A stretch of DNA of 64,000 nt from assembly GCA_014161675.1 (NCBI GenBank), contig GCA_014161675.1_4760.1. One strand, given 5' to 3'. The DNA is from a phage. Shown one piece after another: positions 8,532 to 50,791 of the stretch (positions within the stretch are counted from its first letter, which is position 1; every line of letters begins with the position of its first letter). Under the pieces are notes generated by a model. The model ran no database searches, was not told the DNA's origin, and worked only from the letters and a program-made list of their open reading frames with translations. The position numbers and the translations under genes were made by a program.

Positions 8532-8543
8532 CTATTTTGGGTG

Positions 8544-10021: not shown

Positions 10022-10047
10022 AAGCCGTCCTTGTGGGCGGCTTTTTT
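10022..10047 (+). terminator. Rho-independent terminator after MTase cassette
   Basis: GCCGTCC-ttgt-GGGCGGC hairpin (one G-U wobble as RNA) followed by TTTTTT. Confidence 0.5.
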
Positions 10048-10057
10048 GTATGTATTT

Positions 10058-10065
10058 TATAAATA
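10058..10065 (+). promoter_or_regulatory. T4-type late promoter (TATAAATA) for gp9
   Basis: Exact TATAAATA about 28 nt before gp9 ATG; GAGGAA RBS follows. Confidence 0.45.
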
Positions 10066-10092
10066 ATACATCATAACATGAGGAATTAAACA

Positions 10093-10947
10093 ATGGCACA
10101 AGTTCCAAAGAAAAGAATAGACACAGGTACTGTCGGCAATCCATCGACTGGCGATATCTTATATGATGGCGGTAATAAAATTAACGATAACTTTGATTCA
10201 ATATATGACGCATTTGCTGATCAGAGGTTTAAAGACGTAGACCACGGCGTGGGAAGAATGGTTATTCATGCAACCGGATACTATCAGAAGCATCCACGTC
10301 AAAGCTACGCGGGTTCCGCTGTTGAGATTGGGAGTCTACACGATATCGATACAACTCAAGGCGCACTTATTGCTATTCTACCTAAAGCAAAGGTCGGCGA
10401 GGGTGTTGTATTCATAAATAGTAACGGTAGCCTTTCAACGACGACACCTCTCAATATTCGAACTCAAGCAGGTGATTCTATTAGCGGTTATTCCGGTGAT
10501 GCTACAATAACACAACCATTTTCAAAAGTCACTGTTTGGTGTACTGCCGTTGAAGGTAGTCGCGTAACATGGCGATTGGGTATCGAAAGTATGTTTACCG
10601 ATACAACAACGCCATTAGATAAAACAGTTAACGTAACTGGAGTAGCAACAAACGTTGCTATTGCCGCAAAAACAGAATACGTTTCCATCAAATTATTAAC
10701 TACCGCTAGCAATACATCCGGTTCAAAAATGCGTTCAAGTGAAACGCTACTGATGATTGATTCTAAAGCCGGAAAAGTTTATGCGACGGAATATGCAGTT
10801 TTGCAGAAGACAGAAGATGAACTATACACGGTTCGTTATTTCATCGGTTCCGGCGATAAAGTATATGCAGAGTATAAGGCTACTGGCGAAAATATTCGTT
10901 TAGCAGTTAAAGCCGTAGACACTATTAAAATCGGGGTTGCTACATGA
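10093..10947 (+). CDS. 9: gp9 baseplate wedge / long tail fiber socket protein
   Basis: 284 aa; N-terminal 'GDILYDGGNKINDNFDSIYDAF' and 'IHATGYYQKH' match remembered T4 gp9. Confidence 0.8.
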   Translation: MAQVPKKRIDTGTVGNPSTGDILYDGGNKINDNFDSIYDAFADQRFKDVDHGVGRMVIHATGYYQKHPRQSYAGSAVEIGSLHDIDTTQGALIAILPKAKVGEGVVFINSNGSLSTTTPLNIRTQAGDSISGYSGDATITQPFSKVTVWCTAVEGSRVTWRLGIESMFTDTTTPLDKTVNVTGVATNVAIAAKTEYVSIKLLTTASNTSGSKMRSSETLLMIDSKAGKVYATEYAVLQKTEDELYTVRYFIGSGDKVYAEYKATGENIRLAVKAVDTIKIGVAT

Positions 10948-12746
10948 AACAATTAATTAATATCGGTAACGTTGTTGATGACGGTACAGGTGATTATCTA
11001 AGAAAAGGCGGTCAAAAGATTAATGACAACTTTTCTGAACTTTATACTAAGCTGGGGGATGGTGATATCCCTCATGCATCCGGCGCGTGGAAAACTCACA
11101 CACAACCAGTATTAAAACCAAATTTTGGTGATGCATGGGCGATTAATACAACGAACAACGCTGTTTCTGTTGAATTGCCTAAAGGAAGCGCGAGTGATTA
11201 TAATAAAACAATTAAACTTCGTGATGTTTGGCGCTCATGGGCTGCACATAACGTAACGTTGAAGCCAGCACAAGGTGATACCATTAAGGGATCTCCAATC
11301 GACCGTGAGTTGTATAAAGATTTCATGGATGTTGAATTGGTTTATTGTGCGCCCGGACGTTGGGAATATGTCGAAAATAAACGAGTAGATACTATCACCA
11401 CTTCCGATTTAAGCACAGTCGCTAAGGAAGTTTATATTGCAACCGAAGGACAAACAGACTTCCCTAATGTGTTTGGTTCCAATACTTACAATATTCGAAA
11501 TGTTGAAGTGTATTATCGCGGTAACTTGCTTTATTATGGCAAGGATTTAACCGATGATTCTAACTATGGTTCAATCGGTGAAAACGGTGATATTGTTCCT
11601 CTGGACGGTAAAAGCATTAAATTACGCTTCCCTTGTTCGGCGGGTGATACCATTCAAATCATCACTTATATGGACGGTATCGCATCCTTCCGGTCAAGCT
11701 ATATTACTCATACAATCCGCGTTTATGAAACAGGAATGACCACTTTTGAATCCATCCCTGGTGAAGTTTGGGTCGGTGAACTTGCTAATAAGAAAGAGTT
11801 TACTAATGCTGAATTAGGCGTAAGTAAGCGAGATCTTATTAATCCAAATTCATTTGAATTGCTGATCAACGGCACACAAATGATTAAAGCGGGTGATGCG
11901 GATTTACCTTCCTTTATTTGTGAAGGTGCTGACGGTGAAACGGAAGAAACCTGCGTACTTGCTGGCGGTCAATGGGTGGAATCTGGTGAAGATTATTCAT
12001 TAATGTTTGACGAAAACAGCGTGGTGACTGGTATTAAATTATCTAAAGCACTAGATAACAGAGACACTATCACAATTCGCTGGTTTAATAATGATATCGG
12101 AACATTAATGGAATGGGACGGTGTAGGCGGTATTAAAGAAAAAGCAGATAAAATCTATCTTAATAACGAAGATGAAGTTACTCTGACAAATCGAATTGAA
12201 TATACCGATTTCCAGAATCCAAGCCAAGCAACTAAACGCCCAATGGAAGATTATACAGGTCGTGTGATGGATATATATTCCATCTTTGATATTTTCCATC
12301 CTATAGGCACAATTTATGAAAACGCGCATAACCCAGCTAACCCGGCGACATATATGGGAATTGGTACATGGGTACGTTATGCGGAAGGAGAATTTCTGGC
12401 TGGTTGGTCTTCTGACGCAAGCGATCAAAACTTCGCACTAAACAACAACGATCTTGATACACATGGTCAACCTACACACACCGCAGGTGGTAACGGTGGT
12501 GATGTTGCATACCAGATCAAGAAAAATATGATTCCTGAATTACAGAGCAACGATCGAGTTCTTGTAAAAGATGATAACGGAAATATTATTATCGGTGGTT
12601 GTCAGGTAGACCCTGATGCAGTAGGTCCAGCGTTTACCAAATATCGAGAAGATAATGTTAAGGTTAATCAGGGAAATACCGATCCATCAATGATGGGTAT
12701 TCTTCCTCCATACAGAACTGTCTATCGTTGGCTAAGGGTAGGTTAA
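10944..12746 (+). CDS. 10: gp10 baseplate wedge protein
   Basis: 600 aa; N-terminus 'MKQLINIGNVVDDGTGDYLRKGGQKINDNF' closely matches remembered T4 gp10. Confidence 0.85.
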   Translation: MKQLINIGNVVDDGTGDYLRKGGQKINDNFSELYTKLGDGDIPHASGAWKTHTQPVLKPNFGDAWAINTTNNAVSVELPKGSASDYNKTIKLRDVWRSWAAHNVTLKPAQGDTIKGSPIDRELYKDFMDVELVYCAPGRWEYVENKRVDTITTSDLSTVAKEVYIATEGQTDFPNVFGSNTYNIRNVEVYYRGNLLYYGKDLTDDSNYGSIGENGDIVPLDGKSIKLRFPCSAGDTIQIITYMDGIASFRSSYITHTIRVYETGMTTFESIPGEVWVGELANKKEFTNAELGVSKRDLINPNSFELLINGTQMIKAGDADLPSFICEGADGETEETCVLAGGQWVESGEDYSLMFDENSVVTGIKLSKALDNRDTITIRWFNNDIGTLMEWDGVGGIKEKADKIYLNNEDEVTLTNRIEYTDFQNPSQATKRPMEDYTGRVMDIYSIFDIFHPIGTIYENAHNPANPATYMGIGTWVRYAEGEFLAGWSSDASDQNFALNNNDLDTHGQPTHTAGGNGGDVAYQIKKNMIPELQSNDRVLVKDDNGNIIIGGCQVDPDAVGPAFTKYREDNVKVNQGNTDPSMMGILPPYRTVYRWLRVG

Positions 12747-12747
12747 T

Positions 12748-13392
12748 ATGATTTCTAAAACACGTTCAAAAGCTAGTGTATTTTCCAGCGATGCGGCGTT
12801 TATTTCATACGATCCAGGATCGAAAGATCCTGTTATCGGTGGTTCTCGTCCAATTGGTGGCGTTAATGTCGATCAATCAAGAAAAGGTTCCTATGTAAAC
12901 AACGTTCAATCTGCAATTGATGACCTTTATTCATTGTCAATGATCCGAATTGGTGATGTGTTGGTTACAACCGACTCAACTCCACCACAAGCCGCAGGAC
13001 AGATTGAAACTCTGTCATTTTCTGGTTCTGTTAACAATCAGCATAATCCAGACGCAAACAAAGTATTAATTGATGTTTTGGGTTATCCATTTATTGTTGA
13101 TGTTGGGTCTTCCGGCGTTTCTCTATGTGAGAAAGTAACGGAAAAATTTACCGAACTAATGAATAAAAACATTATGTTCAAAGAAGTAAAAAGAAAAGGA
13201 AGTAGCAACGACCAATTAGAAATTCATTATATCGATTCTCTTGAACACCCACCAACCGATATTAACAAGTACGGAATTACAATCACAGGAAATGTTGATT
13301 CTCCTGCTCGTGTTGGTTATGGTTCATGGTCTCGAATGGGTACAGAAGAGAAATTTGGAACTACCCTATATTATTTCAAACGTATTGCATAA
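12748..13392 (+). CDS. 11: gp11 baseplate wedge / short tail fiber attachment protein
   Basis: 214 aa; C-terminus 'TTLYYFKRIA' resembles T4 gp11; synteny. Confidence 0.8.
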   Translation: MISKTRSKASVFSSDAAFISYDPGSKDPVIGGSRPIGGVNVDQSRKGSYVNNVQSAIDDLYSLSMIRIGDVLVTTDSTPPQAAGQIETLSFSGSVNNQHNPDANKVLIDVLGYPFIVDVGSSGVSLCEKVTEKFTELMNKNIMFKEVKRKGSSNDQLEIHYIDSLEHPPTDINKYGITITGNVDSPARVGYGSWSRMGTEEKFGTTLYYFKRIA

Positions 13393-13403
13393 GGTGATGT
13401 ATA

Positions 13404-14804
13404 ATGGCAAACAATACTATTAACCATGTAAAAGACGATGCTCAATACGTCAAGTTTAACCCTGTAAATGATTGGCCTCAAAGCATTACCAACGTACAAG
13501 CGGCTTTAGCCGCTATTAATGGCTTTGCCGTAAATGGATTACCGGACGCTACGGAAGATACAGCCGGGATCGCTGCAATCGCAACTCAGGAAGAAGTAAA
13601 CGACGGCACTGTAGACAATAAGATCGTGACTCCAAAAACACTAGCTGTTAAAATGTCACGTCCAGATGCTACAAAAGAAGTAAAAGGCATTACCCGATTT
13701 GCCACGATGGAAGAATCGCTGCAAGAGAGCAACGAGAACATGGCAATCGGTCCAGACACACTAAACCATTACTTCACCACTAAAAAGGCGTCAGAGAGCG
13801 TTCAGGGGACTATTAAGATATGTTCTCTTGAGGCGGCAAAGATTGGCAGTGATGACACAATGGCAGTAACACCGAAAAAGATGCACACTGCCATTGCACA
13901 GATTGTGCCGGGATTAATTCCAGATCAAAACACAGCAACCGAAAGCGCACAGGGTTTAGTTCAGTTAGCAACTAATGCGCAGGTTTTACAAGGCCAGATT
14001 CGAGAAGGTTTTGCAATTAGCCCTTATGCATTTGCAAATGCTCGCGCCAATGAGAATCAGGCGGGTACTGTTAAGATCGCCAGCCAGTCACAGATGAATG
14101 CTGGTTCAGATGATACTGTAGTTGTTTCTGCTAAGAAGTTTGCAAGCACTAAGGCAACAACGTCTCAATACGGCATTGTTAAACTACGAGACACCGTAGG
14201 AAGTGAGGCTAACGCTGCACTATCAGCAAATGCTAAGGTTCTTCCTAGCACTGGCGGTACGGTAAGCGGAAACGTCTATAAAGGTTCAAACTCAGACGGC
14301 AACCAGTTTGTTACTAAAAATGAATTAGCGAATCACGCAATGCCAATTGGTGGTATTATCCTTTCTGGATTCAATGCCGATCGAGGTGACTTTCTGATCT
14401 GTAATGGTCGTTCACTGAATAAAAATCAATATCCGCAATTATTTTCTGCGATTGGTTATACCTTTGGTGGTTCAGGTGACAATTTTAATCTTCCTGATAT
14501 GCGCGGTTTAGTTGCTCGTGGTTGCGATCATGGAAGAAACCTTGATCCAGGTCGTCGATTTGGTTCTTATCAAGAAGACGCAATGCAGAGAATTACTGGT
14601 AAATTCCCTGTAGCTGACCGCTGGCGCGGTTGGTATGGTGGCGCATTTACTGCACAGCGCGGTCAATGGAGCACGAACTATAAAAACGGTGGTGGTGATG
14701 ATTGGGGTTCTACTGTTAACTTTGATTCAGGAAGATCCGTAAGAACGGCTAACGAGACTCGCGTCAAGAGTCTGGCATTAAACTATATCATAAGGGTGCG
14801 CTAA
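13404..14804 (+). CDS. 12: gp12 short tail fiber
   Basis: 466 aa; C-terminal 'LPDMRGLVARG' and 'LNYIIRVR' resemble T4 gp12. Confidence 0.8.
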   Translation: MANNTINHVKDDAQYVKFNPVNDWPQSITNVQAALAAINGFAVNGLPDATEDTAGIAAIATQEEVNDGTVDNKIVTPKTLAVKMSRPDATKEVKGITRFATMEESLQESNENMAIGPDTLNHYFTTKKASESVQGTIKICSLEAAKIGSDDTMAVTPKKMHTAIAQIVPGLIPDQNTATESAQGLVQLATNAQVLQGQIREGFAISPYAFANARANENQAGTVKIASQSQMNAGSDDTVVVSAKKFASTKATTSQYGIVKLRDTVGSEANAALSANAKVLPSTGGTVSGNVYKGSNSDGNQFVTKNELANHAMPIGGIILSGFNADRGDFLICNGRSLNKNQYPQLFSAIGYTFGGSGDNFNLPDMRGLVARGCDHGRNLDPGRRFGSYQEDAMQRITGKFPVADRWRGWYGGAFTAQRGQWSTNYKNGGGDDWGSTVNFDSGRSVRTANETRVKSLALNYIIRVR

Positions 14805-16573
14805 TGATTGAACAATTAAACATCCACGAGATCCCACATGTTGACGGTGTACCAAGCGAAGGACAGCACCGTATTAACTGGATCAAGAATGGCGAATGTT
14901 TAAGCGCAGCAACGACACAGACTGGCAATGACGGGACGCTTAACCGCGCCCCGGTTGCAATTCAAGAAAACGTTGCACGCGTAAACGAAAACGCAAAATC
15001 AACCGTCGCTAAAGTTAACGAGGTTGTAACGGCGGTTAACGATATTAAAACAACTTTAGGGGTAATTTCTGACGGAAGTATCATTGATGTGGTTAACCAG
15101 ACTGTCGCAAAAGTTGAATCCGTCGAAGATAACTTAGGAGAAACAGCAAGAACTCTACAAACAACGGTAGACGCTGTATCAGAACTTAACATCAAGATTG
15201 GTGATCGCCCCGCTGCCGATCCTAGCACAAGAACAATCTATGATGACATTTCTTTCATCAAACAAGAAATGGGTTCTTATCCTAACTTTAATATCAATGG
15301 TTCCCCTGATGCTGGCAGTTCCGGTTCTGGCATCAAATACCGAGTTATTCAGAATACCGCAGCATTAAATGACCACGGTCGCCGAATCATTCAGCTTGAA
15401 AACGACTGGCAAGATTCTGACGTCGGCGAGTTAACAAAACAAGTTAACAAAATGCGCAGTGAGATCGGCGACACGTCTCTTGCAACACAAGAAAATGTGT
15501 ATGTTCGTCTCCGCACCAACGCAAGAAACATTGCTAACTTATCAAACGAAGTTCTAGAAGTCAAGAAAGCAATTTTGTTTGATTCAATCCCTGATATCGG
15601 GACTAAAGTCACTACGCTGGGAACTAATTATGAACGTCTAAACAATGATGTTAATGGTGTAGATTCCGGTATTCGTCCTCGTCTTCTGGCTGTCGAGAAT
15701 AAGATCGGAACGCCTCAATCGGCTGGAAGCATTGACTATCGATTAACCAACACAGAGCGAGAATTTTTAGATCTTAAACAGGTTGTTGGTGTAAGCGGTG
15801 CTGACGGTTTGCGCGGTGAAGTTGTTCGACTTTCCAATGAGATTGGCACTGACAGCGATCGACATACTCTAGCCGGACGTATTAAAGTTGTAGAAAACAC
15901 TCAGGGTCGGTTAGAAGCAAGCGTACAGGACATGGAACAGATTGTAGGTGATCGCGAATCAGGTTTGACCGCTGGCGTTATTAAACTATCAAGTGATATC
16001 TATGGCGATGATGGTTCAGAAGATCCATTTACTCAGAAAGGCGTGATTAAAATCGTCAAAGAGCTACAAACATCTAACGGAAACAAAGTAGATGATGTAC
16101 CTGATGACGGTTTCCATTATCTGCGTAAGCGCGGAGAATGGGTGCAAGTTGCATATGCTGCTGGAGCATTTAAAAATACCGCAGATATTACGGTTGAGCT
16201 GGACGAACAGGATGTTTATAAACCGATTCCGCTTAACGACATGGCGGAAGAAGTTAATGCGCGTCAAATGGTGAAAAGTGAATCTGTTATTACCGTTCAG
16301 GACAAAGGTTTATTCCGTTGTGTATTCCGTTGTGATGTACAAGCTCAACATAATGCAACATTCATTGTTGCGATTTTCAAAAATGGACAGATGGTACATG
16401 AAGCGAAAAATGGTCATTACGGAACAGACGAATTGATCAGCTATTCTACCAGTGCTTTCCTAAATATTGAAACGGGAGATCAGATTAACATCCGTATTAA
16501 GGGTGTATCTGCCGAAGCAGTAGCACAGCCAGTACAAATTAAAGAGTTCCTCTTTGGGATTTCTCCGGTATAA
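14804..16573 (+). CDS. wac: fibritin (wac) with C-terminal extension beyond the foldon
   Basis: N-terminus 'HEIPHVDGVPSEGQHRINWIKNGE' matches T4 wac; foldon-like 'DGFHYLRKRGEWVQV' at about 16105-16150; about 140 further residues follow. Confidence 0.8.
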   Translation: MIEQLNIHEIPHVDGVPSEGQHRINWIKNGECLSAATTQTGNDGTLNRAPVAIQENVARVNENAKSTVAKVNEVVTAVNDIKTTLGVISDGSIIDVVNQTVAKVESVEDNLGETARTLQTTVDAVSELNIKIGDRPAADPSTRTIYDDISFIKQEMGSYPNFNINGSPDAGSSGSGIKYRVIQNTAALNDHGRRIIQLENDWQDSDVGELTKQVNKMRSEIGDTSLATQENVYVRLRTNARNIANLSNEVLEVKKAILFDSIPDIGTKVTTLGTNYERLNNDVNGVDSGIRPRLLAVENKIGTPQSAGSIDYRLTNTEREFLDLKQVVGVSGADGLRGEVVRLSNEIGTDSDRHTLAGRIKVVENTQGRLEASVQDMEQIVGDRESGLTAGVIKLSSDIYGDDGSEDPFTQKGVIKIVKELQTSNGNKVDDVPDDGFHYLRKRGEWVQVAYAAGAFKNTADITVELDEQDVYKPIPLNDMAEEVNARQMVKSESVITVQDKGLFRCVFRCDVQAQHNATFIVAIFKNGQMVHEAKNGHYGTDELISYSTSAFLNIETGDQINIRIKGVSAEAVAQPVQIKEFLFGISPV

Positions 16574-16582
16574 GAAATTAAA

Positions 16583-16602
16583 GGGGCGTTAAGCCCCTTT
16601 TT
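16583..16602 (+). terminator. Rho-independent terminator after wac
   Basis: GGGGC-gttaa-GCCCC hairpin plus TTTTT. Confidence 0.55.
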
Positions 16603-16619
16603 CGTTTATAGGTGATATT

Positions 16620-17552
16620 ATGTCAGGATATGTAACCAATAACCCAAGAGAATTAAAAGACGCTATTCTGCGTCGTTTAGGCGCACCAGTAATTAACGTA
16701 GAAGTAACAGAAGACCAGATTTACGATTGTATTCAGAGAGCATTAGAACTCTATGGGGAATATCATTTCGATGGTGTGAATAAAGGATATAAAGTATTTC
16801 GTGTTAGTGCCGAGCAAGCGCAACACGGGGTATTTGATTTAAGCGATTCTGGAGTATTCGCAGTAACTAAAATAATTCGAACAAACGTAGGTAGCGCGGC
16901 TACGATGGATGGTACTGCCGTTTATCCGTGGTTTACTGACTTTCTGTTGGGTTTAGCTGGTGTAAATGGCGGTTTAGGATCTGGCTGTAGTAAATTTTAT
17001 GGTCCAAATGCAATGGGTGGTGATCTAGGATATTTCGAACAGCTTATGAGCTATCGAGCCACTATGCAAAATATGCTCAATCCGCTGCCAGATTATTGGT
17101 ATAACAGCGCAAACGGACAACTTAAGATAACAGGAAACTTCCGAGAAGGTGATCTCATTGTTGTTGAATTATATGTTAAAAGCTATGTAGACGTTCCTGA
17201 TATGATCGGCGCGGTTGCTGGTTATGCTCATGCTGGAGGATGTTCTACCGCTGGAGGGATTAGCGCCGTTTATGATAATCCAACTGCTGGTTTAAGCGGG
17301 ATTGTTGCTGGCATGGGACCGATCAGTGAGAACAAGCAGGGCGCATATAATAACCGTTGGGTTAAAGACATGGCAACCGCTTTCACTAAGGAGGTGTGGG
17401 GGTCTATCATGGCTAAACATCAAGGTCTGCAATTACCCGGCGGTGTCACTGTTGATGGTATCCGAATCATTGAAGAAGCACGCGCCGACATTGAGAAATT
17501 GCGACAAGAACTAGAATTATTAGATCCTCCGTTCGGCATCCTCATGATTTGA
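16620..17552 (+). CDS. 13: gp13 neck protein
   Basis: 310 aa (T4 309); synteny wac-13-14-15. Confidence 0.8.
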
Positions 17553-17588
17553 TTTATTGGGGGAGTATTCCCCCATTTGGAGTAACAT

Positions 17589-18329
17589 ATGTTTAACAAC
17601 ACTCTTTTTGCTCGCCTTGAATCGCAAAAGGATTATGAGAATACACGACAAACAGAGATTCTTAATCCTTATGTGAACTTTCACAAATATACAAATACTC
17701 AGACGTTAGCCGACGTTATGGTCGCCGAAGCTATTCAGATGCGAGGTGTAGAATTATATTACATCCCTCGTGAATTTGTCAAACCAGATATGATCTTTGG
17801 TGAGGATGTTCAAAGCAAATTTACTAAAGCATGGAAATTTGCGGCGTATATTAACTCATTTGATGGGTATGAAGGAGCGGGTAATTTCTTCTCTAGTTTC
17901 GGGTATCAAGCTAATGATGAATTAACTTTTACGGTTAACCCCAACCTATTCAAACATCAAGTAGATGATCAAGAGCCAAAATCAGGTGACTTAATTTATA
18001 TTCCGATGAGTAATGATTTATTTGAAATTAATTACGTTGAGCCATATCAGCCGTTTTTTCAGGCTGGCAAAAATGCCATGCGTAAAATTATTGCAGAGAA
18101 ATTCGTGTATAGCGGTGAGGAATTGCGACCAGAATTACAACGCAATGAGGGAATTAATGTTGATGAGTTTGCGGATCTGGATCTTGCACCGATCACTAAT
18201 CTGGACGGGTTAACAGATATCAACCTAGATCAGTACAAAGAAGATAAGCAATTCAGAAGCGAAGGACAAGATTTTATTGATCCGTTTGATCCTATTAATG
18301 GCAAGGGTTCACCTTTCGCCGATTTTTGA
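17589..18329 (+). CDS. 14: gp14 neck protein
   Basis: 246 aa; synteny. Confidence 0.75.
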
Positions 18330-19189
18330 TAAATACTCATAAACAAGGGGGTCAAATGTTCGGTTGGCACTATAATTCGTCAATTAGACGGTATATTGTA
18401 TTGCTGGGTAATTTATTCTCCGGTGTACAAATTAAAAGGGTGCGTAGCGACGGTGAGCGTTTTATTAAAGTTCCTATCACCTACGCAAAGAAAGAAAAAT
18501 TCATGATGAGTCTGGACAAATATAACAATATCTCAAGTGAGGAAGACGTAGCAAAGGTAGAAACTATTTTACCGCGTATGTGTCTTTCTTTGATTGATAT
18601 GACATACGCCCAGAACTTTAAAACAAATATTGCAAATAAGACAGTACCAAAATATACGGCTGATGGAATCAGGAGCGTAACACAATATAATCCTGTACCA
18701 TATAAGTTTACTTTCGAGTTAGGGATTTATACGCGTAACGAAGATGATATGTTTCAGATAATTGAACAGATTCTTCCTTACTTCCAGCCTCATTTTAACT
18801 GTAAGATTAAAGAACTACACGGTAATGATGTATGGATTGATCGAGATATTCAGGTCACAATTAGTTCTATTACTCCAGATGAACAGGTAGGAGAAGATAA
18901 GTTTTCTCGTCGTCGTCTTGAGTGGACCATTATGTTCGAATTTATCGGGTTTATATATCCTCCAGCTACCGACGTTAAGGGGGAAATTAGAACGATTTAT
19001 CTTGATTTTCATGCCAATTCTCGTGAATTGAATCCTAGCGGTAATTTTGAATCCGTGGATCACGAGGTCGTTAAACGTGACGTCGAGCAAGATGATTGGG
19101 ACGGAACTATCAAAGAATCATATTCTAGTGATATTCCAATACCAGTTGCACCGACCCCACCGGGTCCACGTATTGTAAGAGAATTTTAA
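18326..19189 (+). CDS. 15: gp15 tail sheath stabiliser / tail terminator
   Basis: 287 aa; synteny; start overlaps gp14 stop. Confidence 0.75.
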
Positions 19190-19202
19190 GAGGTAATTTA
19201 TT

Positions 19203-22802
<3,600 letters not shown>

Positions 22803-22836
22803 ATACGATAATGCATAAAAAGATGAGGAAATTCTA

Positions 22837-24840: not shown

Positions 24841-24913
24841 TCAGTAAATTAGCATAGATTAAAAGTTAAATCAAGCGGGGAGAAAATCCCCGCTCTATTA
24901 AGGAATATCAATT

Positions 24914-25408: not shown

Positions 25409-25466
25409 ATATATTATCATGCGGGGAGAAGTTCCCCGCCTAATTTCTCCCAATTCGAGGTGAATA

Positions 25467-27032: not shown

Positions 27033-27272
27033 ATGAAACAATTTATCGAAGCAATTAAAACTCGCGATCTAACGCTGATCGAAAAAGAATTTGATAAGAT
27101 CATGGAGGCTAAAAAAGCCCAGATCATCGAATCCCAGCGTGTCGAAATCGCATCCAGTATCATGATCGAAGGTGAAGAAGAAAAAGACCGCGATGATGAA
27201 GATATGGAAGATGAGGACGACGAAGACGAAGAACACAAAGACGATAAAAAAGACAAAGAAGACGACGAATAA
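27033..27272 (+). CDS. 67: gp67 prohead core protein
   Basis: 79 aa with highly acidic C-terminus; position between portal and gp68. Confidence 0.6.
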   Translation: MKQFIEAIKTRDLTLIEKEFDKIMEAKKAQIIESQRVEIASSIMIEGEEEKDRDDEDMEDEDDEDEEHKDDKKDKEDDE

Positions 27273-27284
27273 TAGGAAGCCAAC

Positions 27285-27692
27285 ATGATTAAAGATTTTA
27301 CTCCTAAAGCTGACTTAGAAACTTTTCTGCCGGAAGCACAGGAAAAATTGGACATGTTGGCTATGTTTGAGTCAGAAGAACTATTGAAAATCGTTGAAGG
27401 TATCTCCGAGGATGAGCCGGAACTGGCGGTAGCAATGCTGTCTATCATCGACGGAATTACTGTAAATGAAGCAATGGTTAAACATGTAAACGCACGCGGG
27501 GAAGTTGCACGTAAGAAAGATCGCAAAACCCGTGAGCGCAATGCTTACATGACTACTGGCCTAAGCAAAGCTAAACGCCGTCAAATTGCCCGTCGTGCTG
27601 CAAAAACCAAACGTGCAAATCCATCTATCGAACGTCATGCGGAACGTAAGCGCAAAAAAGCAATGCGTAAACGTAAGGCGTTAGGATTATAA
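27285..27692 (+). CDS. 68: gp68 prohead core protein
   Basis: 135 aa with basic C-terminus; synteny. Confidence 0.6.
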   Translation: MIKDFTPKADLETFLPEAQEKLDMLAMFESEELLKIVEGISEDEPELAVAMLSIIDGITVNEAMVKHVNARGEVARKKDRKTRERNAYMTTGLSKAKRRQIARRAAKTKRANPSIERHAERKRKKAMRKRKALGL

Positions 27693-27703
27693 CAGGAAAC
27701 AAC

Positions 27704-28399
27704 ATGGAAAAGAACGAATTACTGATCGAACAATGGGGCGTTCCTTGTGCTCGCGGTAGTTCGTCATTGCTTGAATCATTTGATGATAAGGCTACAGGAA
27801 ATCTCTATATTCAAGGGATTTTCCTGCAAGCCGAAACAGTAAACCGCAATAAACGCTGGTATCCTCGCAGTGTTCTAGAAAATGCGGTTACTAAATACAT
27901 ACATGAACAAGTTGAGACACATCAAGCTCTAGGCGAACTTAATCACCCAGCAAGAGCAATGCCAGATCCATCTAATGCTTGCATCATAATTGAAAAATTA
28001 TGGTGGGAAGGTAATAACGTGATGGGTAAAGCCCGTGTTATTGAAGGGGATAAAGGCGCAGGTGATAAACTTGCTGCACTGATTCGCGCTGGCTGGATTC
28101 CTGGCGTTTCCTCCCGTGGGTTGGGTCGGTTGAAAGACTCTGGTCGCGGATACAATATTGTACAGGAAGGTTTTGTGTTGACGGTTGGTGTTGATGTTGT
28201 ATGGGGTCCGAGCGCACCAGATGCGTGGGTAACTCCTGTGGTTGAGTCAACGGATAGCGATTCTAGCGCGTCAGACGCACCAGAAAGCGATAAAACCGAA
28301 AAAGTGACTAACCCTACAGCCTCACAACAAAACATCGTAGAATCGAATAATAGCGCGTTTATGGCGCTCGCAGAAGCGTTATCTAAACGCTATAAATAA
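27704..28399 (+). CDS. 21: gp21 prohead core protease
   Basis: 231 aa (T4 212); synteny 68-21-22-23. Confidence 0.8.
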   Translation: MEKNELLIEQWGVPCARGSSSLLESFDDKATGNLYIQGIFLQAETVNRNKRWYPRSVLENAVTKYIHEQVETHQALGELNHPARAMPDPSNACIIIEKLWWEGNNVMGKARVIEGDKGAGDKLAALIRAGWIPGVSSRGLGRLKDSGRGYNIVQEGFVLTVGVDVVWGPSAPDAWVTPVVESTDSDSSASDAPESDKTEKVTNPTASQQNIVESNNSAFMALAEALSKRYK

Positions 28400-28430
28400 T
28401 AACGTCGTTATCAACAAGAAGGTTATAACC

Positions 28431-29225
28431 ATGCTTAAAGAAATGCTGCTCGAAGAAGCAAAACAGATCACCGTAGACGTTGCTCTCGATGACCTGTTTG
28501 AATCCGTCGAACTGTCGCCGGAAGTAAAAGAAAATTTTGGTACTATCTACGCTCAGGCGGTAAAAGCTAATGCTGTTGCTCTGGCAGAAAGCCACATTGA
28601 AAAAATCGCCGCTAAAGCCGATGAACTGGTAGAATCAAAGGTCGAAGAAGCACGCACCGAGATTGAAACCAAACTGTACGAAGATGCAGATAAATTCCTG
28701 AATCACTTAGGCGCTAAATGGCTGGCAGAAAATAAAGAAGCCGTCACCCGTAATATTAAAGCGGATCTGTGCGAATCCCTGATTGGTTCTCTGAAAGATG
28801 TTTTCGTTACTCACAATGTTGTAGTACCGGAAGAATCTGTAGACGTTGTTGCTGAACTTGACGAAGCACTCAAAGAAGAAAAAGAAAAAACCTCTGAACT
28901 CTTTGATGCCAAACTGCAACTTGAAAGCGAAATTCGTGGCATGAAGCGCGAACAAGCGATCAATGAAAGCACTCGTGATCTTTCCGATACTCAGAAAGAA
29001 AAAGTAACCGCGCTGATTGAAGGTCTGGAATATAGCGAAACTTTCGATAAGAAATTAACTGCAATTGTCGAAATGGTTGCTAAGAAAGAAGACAAACCAG
29101 CGAAGATTGAAGAATCACTAAATACTGATGCCGACAAGCTGAATGTTATTGCAGAAGCTGTCGAAGAATCAGAGAAAAAAGCAACTGTAGATTCCGGCGT
29201 ATCTCGCTACCTGAATTTCATCTAA
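28431..29225 (+). CDS. 22: gp22 prohead core scaffold protein
   Basis: 264 aa, acidic and helical; synteny. Confidence 0.7.
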   Translation: MLKEMLLEEAKQITVDVALDDLFESVELSPEVKENFGTIYAQAVKANAVALAESHIEKIAAKADELVESKVEEARTEIETKLYEDADKFLNHLGAKWLAENKEAVTRNIKADLCESLIGSLKDVFVTHNVVVPEESVDVVAELDEALKEEKEKTSELFDAKLQLESEIRGMKREQAINESTRDLSDTQKEKVTALIEGLEYSETFDKKLTAIVEMVAKKEDKPAKIEESLNTDADKLNVIAEAVEESEKKATVDSGVSRYLNFI

Positions 29226-29242
29226 TGCAATTCAAATCTACT

Positions 29243-29250
29243 AATAAATA
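29243..29250 (+). promoter_or_regulatory. Possible late promoter variant (AATAAATA) for gp23
   Basis: 'ctAATAAATActtt' about 35 nt before gp23 ATG; one mismatch to TATAAATA. Confidence 0.3.
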
Positions 29251-29283
29251 CTTTAGGTTAACAACAAACAAGGTTTAAAGAAC

Positions 29284-30870
29284 ATGAAAACTACCAAAGA
29301 ACTGATGGAAAAATGGTCCCCGCTGCTGGAGAACGAAAAACTGCCGGAAATCGCAACTGCGTCTAAGCAGAAACTGGTTGCTAAAATTCTGGAATCTCAG
29401 GAAGCGGATTTTGCTGTAGACCCGATCTATAAGGATGAAAAAGTTGTTGAAGCATTCGGTGGCTTTATCGCAGAAGCCGAAGTTGCTGGCGACCACGGTT
29501 ATGACGCATCTCAGATCGCGGCTGGTCAGACCACTGGTGCAATCACTAACGTAGGTCCGGCTGTTATCGGTATGGTTCGCCGTGCTATTCCTAACCTGAT
29601 CGCATTTGATATTTGTGGCGTTCAGCCGATGAGCACTCCGACTAGCCAGATCTTTGCAATCCGTTCTGTATACGGTGGCGATCCGCTGAAATCCGGTGCT
29701 CGCGAAGCATTCCATCCGATGTATGCACCTGATGCGTTCCATAGCTCTCTTGCTGCTAAAGAGGCAACTGTAGGTTCACCAACTGGTACTGCATTCGCTA
29801 AACTAACTCTCAATAATCAGATTGAAGCAGGTGATATTGTACACCACACCTTCGCAGAAACTGGTATTGCATATCTGCAAAACGTTACCTCAGATGCAGT
29901 AACCCCAGCCAAAGCTGGCAGCGAGTCAGAAGATGAAGTTGTCATGAAGCTGATGGAAGAAGGTAAACTGGCTGAAATCGCTTTCGGTATGGCTACTTCC
30001 ATTGCCGAAATTCAGGAAGGCTTTAACGGTTCCAGCAATAACCCGTGGGCTGAAATGTCAATGCGTATTGACAAACAGGTTGTTGAAGCGAAATCTCGCC
30101 AACTGAAAGCTCGTTATTCTATCGAAGTTGCGCAGGATCTGCGTGCTGTACACGGTATGGATGCTGACGCCGAACTGAATGCTATCCTGGCTAACGAAGT
30201 TCTGCTTGAAATCAACCGCGAAATCGTTGATGTGATCAACTTTACCGCTCAGGTTGGTAAGACTGGTATGACTCAGACCGTTGGTTCTAAAGCTGGTGTA
30301 TTTGACCTGCAAGACCCGATCGATACTCGCGGTGCTCGTTGGGCTGGTGAATCCTTCAAATCTCTGATCTACCAGATCGACAAAGAAGCTGCTGAAATCG
30401 CTCGTCAGACTGGTCGCGGTGCTGGTAACTTTGTTATCGCTTCCCGTAACGTTGTAAACATTCTGGCTTCTGCTGATCAGGGTATCAGTCTTGCTATGCA
30501 GGGTGCTGCAAAAGGTCTGAATACCGACACCACTAAAGCTGTTTTCGCTGGTGTTCTGGCTGGTAAGTACAAAGTATTCATCGACCAGTATGCTCGTCAG
30601 GACTACTTCACCGTAGGTTACAAAGGCGACAACGAAATGGATGCTGGTATCTACTATGCTCCGTATGTTGCTCTGACTCCGCTGCGTGCAACTGATCCGC
30701 AGTCTTTCCACCCGGTTCTGGGCTTCAAGACTCGCTACGGCATCGGTATTAACCCGTTTGCAGACAGCAAATCCCAGGCACCGTCCGCTCGCATCACCTC
30801 CGGTATGTTGAGCAAAGACAGCGTAGGTAAAAACGCATACTTCCGTCGTGTATGGGTTAAAGGTTGCTAA
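29284..30870 (+). CDS. 23: gp23 major capsid protein
   Basis: 528 aa; long collinear matches to T4 gp23 ('MVRRAIPNLIAFDICGVQPM', 'IDKQVVEAKSRQLKA', 'GIYYAPYVALTPLR', 'KNAYFRRVWVKG'). Confidence 0.95.
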   Translation: MKTTKELMEKWSPLLENEKLPEIATASKQKLVAKILESQEADFAVDPIYKDEKVVEAFGGFIAEAEVAGDHGYDASQIAAGQTTGAITNVGPAVIGMVRRAIPNLIAFDICGVQPMSTPTSQIFAIRSVYGGDPLKSGAREAFHPMYAPDAFHSSLAAKEATVGSPTGTAFAKLTLNNQIEAGDIVHHTFAETGIAYLQNVTSDAVTPAKAGSESEDEVVMKLMEEGKLAEIAFGMATSIAEIQEGFNGSSNNPWAEMSMRIDKQVVEAKSRQLKARYSIEVAQDLRAVHGMDADAELNAILANEVLLEINREIVDVINFTAQVGKTGMTQTVGSKAGVFDLQDPIDTRGARWAGESFKSLIYQIDKEAAEIARQTGRGAGNFVIASRNVVNILASADQGISLAMQGAAKGLNTDTTKAVFAGVLAGKYKVFIDQYARQDYFTVGYKGDNEMDAGIYYAPYVALTPLRATDPQSFHPVLGFKTRYGIGINPFADSKSQAPSARITSGMLSKDSVGKNAYFRRVWVKGC

Positions 30871-30952
30871 TATAAGCCATTCCTGAAAACTCCTGTCGGG
30901 TGCAATGCCCGACTTATCATAAACCTTATGACAGTGTAAAGTGTTAATTCCA

Positions 30953-30983
30953 AAGGGAAGACTCGAAAGGGTCTTCCCTTTTT
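30953..30983 (+). terminator. Strong Rho-independent terminator after gp23
   Basis: 10-bp stem AAGGGAAGAC/GTCTTCCCTT with 8-nt loop, then TTT; a weaker hairpin precedes it at about 30895-30913. Confidence 0.6.
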
Positions 30984-30999
30984 GCGTATTATAACCCGT

Positions 31000-31007
31000 T
31001 ATAAATA
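31000..31007 (+). promoter_or_regulatory. T4-type late promoter motif (TATAAATA)
   Basis: Exact TATAAATA just after the gp23 terminator; target unclear. Confidence 0.35.
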
Positions 31008-31369
31008 AGGTTGCAAGCCTATATTCTATTGGGAGCGAAAATAGATACACACAACAAAGACAGGAAGATGCAGAACATCGGTGGGTTGCGATCCTAAATC
31101 CGGTGGCTATGATATGTGATTGATTTTGATGCTGGATTTATTAAAACACAACAAACAATTCCACCAATTTTCGTAGTAACTGCATGGCAAAGGGACCAAT
31201 GAATGAAATGAGCGTTCATGTTGATATTGGGTCGGATCTATTTGATAGATATACAAGATCTGGTGTATGCCGACCTTGTTATGACATTCCATTGTGACGC
31301 TAGCGGTAATTTTTGGTTTTGGTACGCTGTTCCCCGAATTAACCCAAAATTCTCCATAAGGAGGAATGC

Positions 31370-31522
31370 ATGAGTAAGAAAGAAAACAGCTATGTTATGA
31401 CTCGTAAGGAATACAACGAATTGATGTTAGCATTAGCTTATGCAATTATTCGTTCTGATCATGCAATTAATCTGGTAAACAAAGTTAACCGTAGCGTTGA
31501 TAATGTTTCTAGGAAGAAGTAA
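31370..31522 (+). CDS. small hypothetical protein (50 aa)
   Basis: AAGGAGG at 31358-31364, 5-nt spacer, ATG 31370; below the ORF-track length cutoff. Confidence 0.4.
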   Translation: MSKKENSYVMTRKEYNELMLALAYAIIRSDHAINLVNKVNRSVDNVSRKK

Positions 31523-31561
31523 GTTTATTTTTGGAATCCTTTGGATTCCTTTTTCTTTTTG

Positions 31562-31569
31562 TATAAATA
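31562..31569 (+). promoter_or_regulatory. T4-type late promoter (TATAAATA) for gp24
   Basis: Exact TATAAATA about 38 nt before the gp24 ATG at 31607. Confidence 0.5.
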
Positions 31570-31606
31570 TGATATATCCATTAAGGCAAATACAGGATTC
31601 ATAAAC

Positions 31607-32848
31607 ATGACTCATATTTTTACTGAACTGTTGCGGGAATCTACTTCCTCAGTAGCTAACCAGACAGCGCGACCGCAACTATTATCATTAACTCGCGCGG
31701 TAAACAACCTGATTTTCTCTGATCTGGTAGCAATCCAGCCAACGGATCAACCAGTATCTGCATTGTACGGCCTACGTTATCTTAATCGTGATGGTCAGAT
31801 GACTTTCCGAACTGCTGCGACCTACGGTGGCGCGGCTGGTGATCGCACAGAGATTGAAGAGTTTTCAAAAGAAAAATCTTATGACGAAGGCGCACTGTTC
31901 AAATCAGACGATGTTGTATACGAAGTTGTGACCGCTGGTACAGTCGGTGAAGATGCCGAAACTCCAGAAGCTGCAATCTTTAAAGGCGTAATGACAAACA
32001 AAATTCGTTTCTATAGCGATTGTGCATCGGTAGAATACTTTGAAGATAAAAACACCGAAATTTCGTCTACCTCTATGCAGTTTGACAAGTGGCAAGTTAA
32101 TGTAGGTTCTCGTAAACTGAAAACCTCGTTCACGACCGAATTGATGCAGGATCTTGAGGCAAGCCAAATCAACTCTGAAAACTCTGTAATTGATCTTCTG
32201 GCTACTGTTGCTTCCGAAGAGATCAACAAAGATATTATTCAGAAGTTGATCACTGTATCATCTCGCTATAAAATTAAAGGGATCACCCCTGATGGCGTAC
32301 TTTCTCTCGTTAGCGTTCAGGATGCACCAACACAAGCGCGTGAACTTTACCGCTATGCTTGCGAAATGAGCAATCAAATGTTGCGGACTTCCTCCTTTGC
32401 TGGTACATACGTTTTGGCGTCTTCTCGCGTGGTTGGCCTCCTGCAATCTACCGGATGGATGGAAGAAACCGACAATGCTCTAAGCGAAGGTCGTCTACGT
32501 TGCGGTCTGGAAGTGTACGCAGACACGACGACACCTTTCGATTATATGCTCGTTGGTTGTAAGCACATGATCGGTGATATGGAGAGTGTAGGTTCTCTGT
32601 TCTACTCCCCATATACAGAAGCCGACGGCGCTGGCGCGTATAAGAGCGTAATTGACCCTAATAGCTTCCAGCATCATGTAGCTATTATGAATCGTTATTC
32701 ACTATCTGTCAACCCATACACATCAAAAGTTGATCAGGAAGAACACCAGGTCATCAAGGGTGACGATTGGGGTAAAATGGCTGGACGTTCAGAAATGTCC
32801 TACATTTTAGGAATCGAACTGCCACCGCTTGAGATTGACAACGCTTAA
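31607..32848 (+). CDS. 24: gp24 head vertex protein
   Basis: N-terminus 'MTHIFTELLRESTSS...' aligns with T4 gp24; ORF-track start 31541 is TTG, ATG 31607 preferred. Confidence 0.85.
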   Translation: MTHIFTELLRESTSSVANQTARPQLLSLTRAVNNLIFSDLVAIQPTDQPVSALYGLRYLNRDGQMTFRTAATYGGAAGDRTEIEEFSKEKSYDEGALFKSDDVVYEVVTAGTVGEDAETPEAAIFKGVMTNKIRFYSDCASVEYFEDKNTEISSTSMQFDKWQVNVGSRKLKTSFTTELMQDLEASQINSENSVIDLLATVASEEINKDIIQKLITVSSRYKIKGITPDGVLSLVSVQDAPTQARELYRYACEMSNQMLRTSSFAGTYVLASSRVVGLLQSTGWMEETDNALSEGRLRCGLEVYADTTTPFDYMLVGCKHMIGDMESVGSLFYSPYTEADGAGAYKSVIDPNSFQHHVAIMNRYSLSVNPYTSKVDQEEHQVIKGDDWGKMAGRSEMSYILGIELPPLEIDNA

Positions 32849-33436
32849 CTAAATATCTAACCAAGACAAGTCAGATCCGCCCAAGATTTTTTCGACGGCG
32901 GATCTATTTTCTTGATGATATAAGTTAAAACATGGTATCCCATGTCTACGGGCAACATAAACAGCAATTCGAGTTCCTCCCGAAACGATTCCATTAACTT
33001 CTTTCGCCCAAAATAACACACAATCTACAGGATCATCAAGTGTCTCACCTAAAACTTGAGCAACATTTCTAGAAAACAGATTTTGCATGTATAACGGTAT
33101 AGAACGAGGATTATCATAAACTTGTTCTAATTCATCCATCGCCAGATTTTTTTGTTCTAAGGTTTGCCATGCAATCACATCATGACCGTTATGCTTGTGG
33201 TCATAAAACTTCCAATTTGGAATGAAAATTTTTCTATAATCTGGATCGTAATATTTCATGAAAGCATTGTCCATACCGTAAGCCCCTCCAGAATGCGCTA
33301 CAACGCGATTTTCTGACAATACCCTCCCAATGGTACTAGCCATTATCAAAATGTCGCTAGGCGCTTTTCTAGAGCCTATTAAAGCACATCTACGAAGTGG
33401 TTTTACTCCAAATAGATCTTGTAACTGGTCAAACAT
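32849..33436 (-). CDS. Rossmann-like protein, possible SLOG/DprA(Smf)-like fold
   Basis: 'CALIGSRKAP...VVAHSGGAYGMDNAF' and 'SGGTRIAVYVARRHGIP' resemble DprA/SLOG motifs; GGAGGA RBS. Confidence 0.35.
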   Translation of the reverse strand: MFDQLQDLFGVKPLRRCALIGSRKAPSDILIMASTIGRVLSENRVVAHSGGAYGMDNAFMKYYDPDYRKIFIPNWKFYDHKHNGHDVIAWQTLEQKNLAMDELEQVYDNPRSIPLYMQNLFSRNVAQVLGETLDDPVDCVLFWAKEVNGIVSGGTRIAVYVARRHGIPCFNLYHQENRSAVEKILGGSDLSWLDI

Positions 33437-33588
33437 AATATTTCCTCCATAGAAAGCAATATCATACTACAAGTTAATAACAAATACAAGTATCCGCGTA
33501 GCGGAAGCGAGCACAGCGAGCAATAAAACACTTCCAGTAATTGATTAATAAATGTTCGAAACAAATTTTTATTATTCTATAAGATAAG

Positions 33589-33614
33589 TCTTCGTTTTGA
33601 TCATAATTTAATCA
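33589..33614. repeat. Direct repeat copy 1 (26 bp)
   Basis: tcttcgttttgatcataatttaatca; identical copy at 33738-33763. Confidence 0.7.
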
Positions 33615-33737
33615 TACATGTAAAAACTACACAAAAGGATATCGCTTCGCGAACTCCTACGGAGTATAACATTTGTGTTACAATATGTAGTGATTAATAA
33701 TTAACCAAAGATACATTTTCTATGTTCTAAAGATCTT

Positions 33738-33763
33738 TCTTCGTTTTGATCATAATTTAATCA
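33738..33763. repeat. Direct repeat copy 2 (26 bp)
   Basis: Identical to 33589-33614; flanking 'aagat' and 'acatgtaaa' also shared. Confidence 0.7.
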
Positions 33764-33818
33764 AACAGTATTAATATTGTGCACATGTAAACTAAAATTA
33801 TGTCAATAATAGATACAA

Positions 33819-33843
33819 AAAAGCCGCCCCGAAGGACGGCTAA
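33819..33843 (-). terminator. Rho-independent terminator (minus strand)
   Basis: On the minus strand GCCGTCC-ttcg-GGGCGGC plus T-run; on the plus strand the stem has a C-A mismatch. Confidence 0.45.
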
Positions 33844-33849
33844 TGTTAA

Positions 33850-34287
33850 TTATTTGTTGATAACGATCTGATTTCGGCGAATGGTAACATTACTCTTAGA
33901 GATGATCAGATCATCCGGCACTACGTTAGTTTTGTATGGTTGGAAGCGAACAAGCATCTGATTGCGTTTAGACCCTTCCTTAATCTTGATTTCCATCTGG
34001 ATATTGTTGCCTACGTGAGCAACCGCAATTTCACCTTTATTCTCATAGACCCACTTGCTGGTAACGTCTCCAGCAAAAGCCTTAATAACTTGCAATGCTT
34101 CGTCGTATGCGGTAGAGCTGTGAACTTTCAGAAGGCCAGCCGTAGCAAGACGGGAGCAGGTGATCGCCGGAGATTGCCAAACATCAACATTAATTTGCTC
34201 AATCAGAGTAACACCGCCCTGATCAACTGCTTTGAATGCTTCGAACATTGCCTTTTTCATTGCTACGTGGTTTTTACGGAATTTCAT
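33850..34287 (-). CDS. hypothetical protein
   Basis: 145-aa ORF with GAGGTGA RBS; no motif recognised. Confidence 0.5.
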   Translation of the reverse strand: MKFRKNHVAMKKAMFEAFKAVDQGGVTLIEQINVDVWQSPAITCSRLATAGLLKVHSSTAYDEALQVIKAFAGDVTSKWVYENKGEIAVAHVGNNIQMEIKIKEGSKRNQMLVRFQPYKTNVVPDDLIISKSNVTIRRNQIVINK

Positions 34288-34333
34288 AATTATTCACCTC
34301 TATTGATTAGTTATTCAGAATATTAATTACAAA

Positions 34334-34609
34334 TCAGGACATTGCCCGTTTGAATGCGTCCATTATAACAGTGTTATTTGGCATGTCAACACGTTTTTGA
34401 ACTTTATTTTTAAATTTTTTGTTGATGTGGTGTTTACGATAAACAACCTTTTCACGATTGGCGTAAGACTCTCGTGCATCTTTTACCATCAACCATGCCT
34501 TAGCCGCATCTTGTCCGCTGATCCCGCCAATCTTCTTAGCAATATCAACAAAATTAAGACCGTGGTCTTCGCGTAGCATGTAAACCATTAACGCTGTTTT
34601 CTTGTCCAT
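34334..34609 (-). CDS. hypothetical protein, possible helix-turn-helix
   Basis: 91 aa; 'LNFVDIAKKIGGISGQDAAKAW' is HTH-like; basic C-terminus. Confidence 0.4.
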   Translation of the reverse strand: MDKKTALMVYMLREDHGLNFVDIAKKIGGISGQDAAKAWLMVKDARESYANREKVVYRKHHINKKFKNKVQKRVDMPNNTVIMDAFKRAMS

Positions 34610-34806
34610 TACTTCGCCTCATTGACGATTAACAGGATAGTGATCAGTACCGGAAACTGGATCATGACAGTACCAAAAAACCGGATAAACGCATTTTCTG
34701 ACTTCCACACATGACATGCGACTAGCTGATAGACCATTGTTGCAACCAAAGCCAGAAAATACATCTCGATTGGTGCTTCTTTGATCAATCGTACAATCTC
34801 ATTCAT
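34609..34806 (-). CDS. small membrane protein
   Basis: 65 aa with two hydrophobic stretches; GAGGTGA RBS. Confidence 0.45.
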   Translation of the reverse strand: MNEIVRLIKEAPIEMYFLALVATMVYQLVACHVWKSENAFIRFFGTVMIQFPVLITILLIVNEAK

Positions 34807-34960
34807 ACTTCACCTCATACATTCATAAACACAACAACGAATAGGACAGTAACAGTTATTAAAGCCATTTTCAACCCCATATTCATAATATTTTCCTCAT
34901 AAGGTAACGCCCTGTTGATGTGTGCCATTATAAGCCACTAAATCACACTGTCAAGCACTA

Positions 34961-34990
34961 AAAACAAAAAAGCCACCCCGAAGGATGGCT
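34961..34990 (-). terminator. Rho-independent terminator after hoc (minus strand)
   Basis: Minus strand GCCATCC-ttcg-GGGTGGC plus U-run. Confidence 0.45.
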
Positions 34991-46968: not shown

Positions 46969-46977
46969 TAAGCGAAA

Positions 46978-50785: not shown

Positions 50786-50791
50786 CAACTT

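Follow-up and report, generated by a model that had tools for sequence, protein, structure and literature searches.

Three U·G-containing hairpins in the virion-gene region of a Krischvirus are probably copies of a conventional Rho-independent terminator

Three short hairpins, each with a single U·G wobble in its stem, were analysed in a 64,000-nt stretch of phage DNA (contig GCA_014161675.1_4760.1, hereafter the window): one on the plus strand at 10022-10047 (site 1) and two on the minus strand at 33819-33843 (site 2) and 34961-34990 (site 3). They are best explained as three copies of one short Rho-independent terminator module of conventional type, in which the wobble is tolerated and the direction of termination comes from a one-sided U tract. 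This reading is given a probability of about 0.8. The original prediction had seen in the wobble a design that keeps the hairpin stable in the sense transcript only and thereby makes termination unidirectional. Judged by its sequence, the window comes from a Krischvirus, i.e. an RB49-like T4-type coliphage, and covers its virion-gene region: about 58 Krischvirus (RB49-like, Straboviridae) genomes match stretches of it at 95-99.8% identity, as compared over 3 kb around sites 2 and 3 and 2.5 kb around site 1.

All three hairpins were found exactly as predicted, with the sequence GCC(G/A)TCC, a 4-nt loop and GGG(C/T)GGC followed by T6. At site 1 (GCCGTCC-TTGT-GGGCGGC, 10024..10041, plus strand), positions 10024-10030 pair with 10035-10041 and the wobble is T10028·G10037; an outer A-T extension widens the stem to 10022-10043, and the T6 tract occupies 10042..10047. 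Site 2 (GCCGTCC-TTCG-GGGCGGC, 33823..33840, minus strand) pairs 33840-33834 with 33829-33823, with the wobble T33836·G33827 and the T6 tract at 33817..33822. Site 3 (GCCATCC-TTCG-GGGTGGC, 34972..34989, minus strand) pairs 34989-34983 with 34978-34972, with the wobble T34985·G34976 and the T6 tract at 34966..34971. The predicted pairing was confirmed as well. On the transcribed strand every stem position pairs and the single U·G is always the third pair from the loop, while on the opposite strand the wobble becomes C-A, a position that RNAfold leaves unpaired (1x1 internal loop) or bypasses by shifting the pairing.

The three elements have what is expected of intrinsic terminators, namely a stable GC-rich hairpin, a T6 directly 3' of the stem and a location just past the end of a gene on the same strand. 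The hairpin of site 1 lies 4-7 nt past the stop codon of a methyltransferase open reading frame (ORF; 9178-10017, plus strand), and its core stem begins 6 nt past it. Site 3 follows hoc (ORF 35002-36216, minus strand) as its predicted terminator; the hoc stop codon ends 12 nt before the core stem, and at site 2 the last stop codon of a small cassette ends 9 nt before it. In deposited records of relatives, where terminator features are ARNold predictions when a source is stated, site 1 is already marked as a terminator in TB34, GEC-3S, G2494, G37-3, Makalu and G2248, site 2 in TB34, the Makalu phages, G37-3, G2494, G2248 and GEC-3S, and site 3 in TB34, Makalu_002, G37-3, G2494 and G2248. Besides these annotations, both the G-U/C-A asymmetry and the role of G·U as an intermediate between GC and AU pairs have been published.

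Intrinsic termination requires a U tract directly after the hairpin. The same assumption is built into the TransTermHP model (PMC1852404). Tail scores, which are based on T-weighting only, reached 4.8-5.5 on the sense side of the three sites versus 0.5-0.9 on the antisense side (4.83 vs 0.92 for site 1, 4.83 vs 0.78 for site 2 and 5.45 vs 0.51 for site 3). The antisense side would thus have no terminator tail even if the stem were perfect, so that unidirectionality can be obtained without any wobble; at site 1, as at the others, it is mainly the T6 tract that sets the direction. The proposal that the wobble gives unidirectional termination was consequently not borne out, since T6 is present on the sense side only.

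An adaptive design, in which U·G would keep the sense hairpin intact and break the antisense one so that opposing polymerases are neither stopped nor paused, also has to be judged by the surroundings of the sites. These had been described as a region with genes on both strands. That description did not hold locally, as each hairpin sits between co-directional genes. No strong opposing promoter was found near the three sites, where promoter-like matches are at or below shuffle expectation. Late gene 24 (plus strand) does converge on the minus-strand block, and its own hairpin comes before site 2. This plus-strand hairpin at about 32873-32905 (region to 32915; CAGATCCGCC...GGCGGATCT) has a U-rich tail; for the 76-nt region, a folding energy of -26.1 kcal/mol (z = -5.9) was calculated. 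The hairpin lies within the 3' end of the minus-strand ORF 32849-33436, a DprA-like gene, and is probably the terminator of gene 24 placed inside the converging coding sequence; a terminator is annotated at this position in the G37-3 record. Two other hairpins are located at convergent junctions, at 39073-39091 (uvsW.1 / uvsY.-2) and 46975-46999 (gene 54 / RB49p182 homologue). In both, the stem is fully Watson-Crick paired and the energy is the same on the two strands (-13.5/-13.5 and -18.9/-18.9 kcal/mol, respectively), as against U·G in 5 of 8 co-directional hairpins, a distribution which speaks in favour of the adaptive design.

The stability of the hairpins on both strands was calculated with RNAfold. 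Sense and antisense energies were -15.9 and -11.3 kcal/mol for site 1, -14.8 and -9.9 for site 2, and -13.5 and -9.0 for site 3. The sense hairpins have z-scores of -4.6 to -5.1 versus shuffled sequences; the antisense hairpins fold at -7.9 to -11.3 kcal/mol with z = -3.3 to -4.7. The latter are thus weakened but not lost, as their folding remains far better than that of shuffled sequence. From the claim that the hairpin is stable only in the sense transcript, an advantage of about 5 kcal/mol for the sense strand can be retained, but not the exclusivity. In-silico replacement of U·G by C-G or U-A reduced the gap from about 5 to 0.6-0.9 kcal/mol and rendered the antisense stem about as stable as the sense stem. 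The wobble supplies about 4.3 kcal/mol of the difference and the loop the rest. The size of this contribution favours an adaptive design, while the persistence of the antisense hairpin argues against it; the destabilisation is real, but would be a by-product. That terminator hairpins become strand-specific when G-U on one strand is C-A on the other was already stated in the TransTermHP paper (PMC1852404).

Conservation was followed in GenBank phage records, sites 2 and 3 being read in 17 Krischvirus sequences and site 1 in a 58-record BLAST plus nine fetched variants; flank-anchored IMG/VR patterns gave only two Krischvirus contigs. The site 3 hairpin is identical in 17/17 sequences; its wobble is invariant, but so is the whole hairpin. 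At site 2, the U·G pair is kept in 15/17 sequences. RB49 (NC_005066) has GGACGGC, which gives a perfect U-A pair (-14.9 kcal/mol sense, -14.0 antisense), JSE has GGTCGGC with a U·U mismatch, and the loop reads UUCG, UUCU, UUAG or UUUG. For site 1, 33/58 records are identical to the window. A G to A change produces a U-A pair in G37-3, the loop is UCGT in several relatives, and the basal G-C pair is lost in G2248. A wobble shared by design is not what these sequences conserve, given U-A at site 2 of RB49 and at site 1 of G37-3 and U·U at site 2 of JSE. The UUCG tetraloop was also considered as the key feature and rejected, as it varies among orthologues. The two independent G to A changes, from U·G to U-A, agree with the pattern reported by Safina et al. 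for B. cereus terminators, where G·U is the commonest intermediate between GC and AU, the most substitution-prone pair, and mostly changes to AU (PMC5381666).

A wobble in a terminator stem is ordinary. A hairpin-plus-T-tail scan of the whole RB49 genome returned at least one wobble in 18 of 39 candidates, and among 28 high-confidence candidates from unrelated IMG/VR contigs (about 1 Mb) 17 had one or more, with G·U making up about 10% of the stem pairs. In B. cereus terminators the share of G·U is 4% of stem pairs (PMC5381666). A strong preference for G-C has been reported for the base of the stem, where A-U or G-U pairs need the help of factors (PMC8060035). The wobble of the three sites, third from the loop, is in the upper part of the stem, and there a weak pair should be least harmful to termination. 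U·G is probably a tolerated, nearly neutral state on a path from C-G via U·G to U-A in an AT-rich genome. A general preference for 5'-U·G-3' over 5'-G·U-3' was examined and rejected, the counts in unrelated viral contigs being 84 vs 78 overall and 13 vs 13 in a strict set; nor were wobbles in the terminators of these contigs generally enriched at the third pair from the loop. Within the window itself, a simple hairpin-plus-T-tail scan yielded 13 candidates, and the five credible ones with U·G are those at 8503, 10022, 30953, 33822 and 34971. In all five, the U sits in the 5' arm.

The occurrence of the same wobble at three sites does not multiply the evidence. A search of the 64 kb with GCCRTCCNNNNGGGYGGC, allowing up to 2 mismatches, matched the three sites only (6 strand-hits), where 0.29 were expected and none of 100 shuffles reached 6. 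The likeness covers the hairpin plus GGCTTTTTTGT(A/T)T in all three sites, and sites 1 and 2 are alike still further downstream. By these resemblances the three hairpins form one sequence family rather than independent events. The wobble is common to them because they belong to one family, and its recurrence at one stem position is to be counted as a single trait of that family, not as three designs, because the copies are not independent. Further members of the AGCC..TCC-loop-GGG..GGCT hairpin family with U·G near the loop were noticed in the RB49 genome, for example at 34498-34519, 47747-47770, 53585-53609, 149963-149985 and 159773-159795. In the first three of these the wobble is again third from the loop. 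The hairpin at 47747-47770 (AAAGCCATCC-GAAA-GGGTGGCTTT) was called on both strands, with U·G on one and C-A on the other.

Several points weigh against a merely tolerated wobble in a conventional terminator. Termination at the three T tracts is itself deduced from the DNA. The wobble is the majority state everywhere: it is present in 17/17 sequences at site 3 and in 15/17 at site 2, and at site 1 in at least 41 of the 42 with known state (the 33 records identical to the window plus the 9 that were read), which also fits an adaptive design. No T to C reversion at the wobble was seen among orthologues, and at 1-10% divergence weak purifying selection is not separable from lack of time. Finally, copies of the hairpin family in IMG/VR were collected with the pattern GCCRNCC-N4-GGNYGGC-T5, the matches not being phylogenetically independent. 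In the first 120 stretches, the third pair from the loop is T·G in 55, C-G in 50 and T-A in 7. U-A is predicted to be slightly more stable than U·G, yet U·G is 8 times commoner in this set, an excess that simple neutrality does not predict and that an adaptive design would accommodate.

The excess is confined to one position. Among the matches listed, the second pair from the loop is T·G in 8, C-G in 62 and T-A in 23, and the fifth is T·G in 3 and C-G in 92; in a bacterial sample, the third pair is T·G in 16, C-G in 52 and T-A in 13 of the matches listed. U·G is thereby put at 10-30 times rarer than C-G at the two other stem positions, and at about 10% of the states in bacteria. A thermodynamic cause was rejected, as nearest-neighbour values place single C to U variants at every stem position within about 1 kcal/mol. 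Contigs of the T·G class have a lower GC content (0.49 vs 0.56), which fits AT mutation pressure and leaves the confinement to one position unexplained. It is improbable that phages positively maintain U·G at the third pair from the loop of GCCR(Y)CC-N4-GG(G)YGGC-T5 terminators rather than letting it drift. If they did, the selected reason could be that a strong RNA hairpin is kept while the DNA palindrome and the antisense RNA hairpin are made imperfect, or it could be a position-specific effect on hairpin folding in the exit channel of the polymerase, and a small new rule for terminator design would follow. AT mutation pressure acting on a module of common origin that spread horizontally could give the same excess, and the two readings are not separable. 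It is a lead only and leaves the verdict on the three sites unchanged.

Read as conventional terminators, the three copies would each end a small transcription unit and shield the next promoter. This is best seen on the minus strand. Starting 11 nt past the T6 of site 3 and 17 nt past its stem, an early sigma-70 promoter (TTGACA-16-TATAAT, 12/12) is found at 34927..34954, and the site 3 hairpin and this promoter together are a terminator/promoter cassette like the promoter-early stem-loops (PeSL), about 50 of which were described in RB49 and phi1 by Arbiol et al. 2010 (PMC2839356). Three small ORFs follow (34609-34806, 34334-34609 and 33850-34287, minus strand), forming an early cassette; the sites 3 and 2 that flank it are direct repeats at a distance of 1149 bp. 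Site 3 would end hoc, the consensus promoter would drive the three ORFs, and site 2 would end that unit. A TTGACA is present at 33806-33801 past site 2, but no -10 element was found there, so that site 2 is regarded as a terminator only; most relatives have TTAACA at this downstream position.

Sites 2 and 3 are points of abrupt change in the divergence among relatives, which places module boundaries at the terminators. The segment at about 34880-34925 (minus strand) past the site 3 promoter groups the window phage with TB34, UPWr_E1 and KMB43 and shares about 60% identity with most other Krischvirus. G2248 has a different hoc 3' end abutting site 3 and a different sequence directly past the T tract of site 2. 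An unusually long non-coding gap of 413 nt (33437-33849, minus strand) lies between site 2 and the DprA-like gene. It holds a 38-nt direct repeat (33581-33618 / 33730-33767, 89% identical), and in the annotation of UPWr_E1 a longer ORF is placed in it.

Site 1 would close a further unit on the plus strand. Just after late gene 8, a hairpin at 8503-8530 that carries one U·G pair is followed by a sigma-70 promoter (TTGACA-16-TATAAT, 12/12) at 8544-8571. The segment 8503..8571 is a PeSL-type terminator/promoter unit with which the early cassette ending at site 1 begins. The ORFs of this cassette span 8601-10017 (plus strand), the methyltransferase ORF being the last; in the RB49 annotation, p140-p143 are placed between genes 8 and 9. 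Site 1 itself is without an early promoter. Instead, the motif TATAAATA, which is the T4-type late-promoter consensus, is present at 10058..10065 (plus strand), 10 nt past the T tract and 28 nt before the ATG of gene 9 at 10093. The copies of TATAAATA in the window are on the plus (late-gene) strand in 7/8 cases, and the one at 10058-10065 is a putative late promoter. Site 1 would thus mark the end of an early gene block inserted between the late genes 8 and 9, with a late-promoter-like element next to it. The same layout of terminator and late promoter was observed after the major capsid gene 23, where a hairpin at 30953-30980 (plus strand; AAGGGAAGACTC-GAAA-GGGTCTTCCCTT), with one U·G second from the loop, is followed 20 nt further by TATAAATA at 31000-31007 (plus strand).

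The location of the modules at cassette boundaries leaves room for a role at the DNA level, in which the hairpin and T6 are repeats serving as sites of homologous recombination for a shuffling of the PeSL type and the wobble is merely part of the repeat. Such a role is possible, if rather unlikely; it is compatible with terminator function and would mainly explain the likeness of the copies. It is consistent with the direct repeats of sites 3 and 2 around the three-ORF cassette, with site 1 and the 8503-8571 unit bracketing another, and with the abrupt shifts of divergence at the hairpins (G2248, and the drop in identity within 50 nt past the site 3 promoter). Recombination between flanking PeSLs was reported to produce mini-circles, with one crossover mapped inside a stem-loop, and repeat-driven cassette shuffling was proposed (PMC2839356). 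The mini-circle evidence, however, comes from other sites, and the repeat considered here is only about 30 nt long. Moreover, the canonical stem-loop of RB49 PeSLs belongs to a different hairpin family, found in the window at 50.7-57.6 kb (PMC4122927), and identical 18-mer hairpins are also carried by many viral contigs that are unrelated, so that convergence could also yield the likeness.

The last point leads to the view that the likeness of the three hairpins is fortuitous, or that each arrived independently at an effective terminator sequence. It is favoured by the finding of GCCGTCCTTCGGGGCGGC and GCCATCCTTCGGGGTGGC each in about 10 unrelated IMG/VR contigs with different flanks. It is nevertheless improbable in view of the 6 strand-hits against 0.29 expected, and of a likeness that is not limited to the stem but includes GGCTTTTTTGT(A/T)T and, in sites 1 and 2, more of the downstream sequence. 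The adaptive design of the wobble is highly improbable: on top of the one-sided U tract, the co-directional neighbours, the folding antisense hairpins and the perfect U-A versions in RB49 and G37-3, a wobble at any stem position and in any orientation would serve, yet the enrichment is limited to one position, and the same wobble also occurs in hairpins that have a T or A run on each side (IMG/VR loci L032 and L065).

The gene order of the window was established by alignment to RB49 (NC_005066.1) and TB34. The window opens near gene 5 and runs on via baseplate, neck, head and hoc/inh/uvsW genes to a hyperplastic region of small ORFs. An Rfam scan of the whole window gave no family at its gathering score, and no known structured RNA accounts for the hairpins. 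In the hyperplastic region (50738-57624, minus strand), about eight canonical PeSLs of the RB49 type were observed, one small ORF apart. Each comprises a TTGACA, a GGGGATC..GATCCCC stem-loop in the spacer, a -10 element, and a conserved leader ending in a Shine-Dalgarno sequence and ATG (TAGGAGAATCAAACAATG).

Taken as it stands, the finding matters little. It indicates that this Krischvirus uses conventional one-way terminators to insulate small early cassettes that lie among its late virion genes, which agrees with the descriptions of RB49 and phi1. A caution also comes with it: a G·U pair in the stem automatically weakens the hairpin of the opposite strand, yet it is the U tract that decides the direction. 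Wobbles are common evolutionary intermediates and should not be taken for design without evidence of conservation or function.

In comparison with known systems, the three sites show no essential difference from canonical intrinsic terminators of E. coli and its phages. They share the GC-rich stem of 7-9 bp, the 4-nt loop, the T6, the distance of a few nt from the stop codon and the basal G-C pair, and a single U·G in the upper stem is within the normal range. Hairpins with a C(UUCG)G tetraloop were reportedly noted in T4 transcripts by Tuerk et al. in 1988; sites 2 and 3 share with them the UUCG loop closed by C-G, whereas site 1 has UUGU or UCGU. Bidirectional terminators are likewise based on a hairpin, but combine an upstream A tract and a downstream T tract with equal pairing of the stem on both strands. 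The three sites have no upstream A tract and pair asymmetrically, and are thus of the unidirectional type.

The likeness to PeSLs is greatest for site 3, which occurs in the same genus, has a stem-loop followed by a sigma-70 early promoter and small ORFs, and lies beside hoc, a gene listed among those associated with PeSLs (PMC2839356). One RB49 PeSL stem-loop was shown to terminate in vivo by stopping read-through into lacZ, G-T pairs are marked in PeSL stems in a figure legend, and the stem-loop is allowed to lie upstream of the -35 element in one subclass (PMC2839356). Small or plastic ORFs and boundaries marked by insertions or deletions are found here as well, in the cassettes 8601-10017 and 33850-34806 and in the breakpoints at sites 2 and 3 (G2248 and others). 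An early promoter within the same intergenic unit of about 100 bp is present at site 3 (12/12), reduced to TTGACA alone at site 2 and absent from site 1. The typical RB49 PeSL stem consists of a G-run, a loop and a C-run located between or over the -35 and -10 elements (PMC4122927), in contrast to the GCCRTCC/GGGYGGC stem upstream of the -35 element seen here. The three sites are therefore classed as ordinary intrinsic terminators rather than as PeSLs proper, although one of them belongs to a PeSL-like unit.

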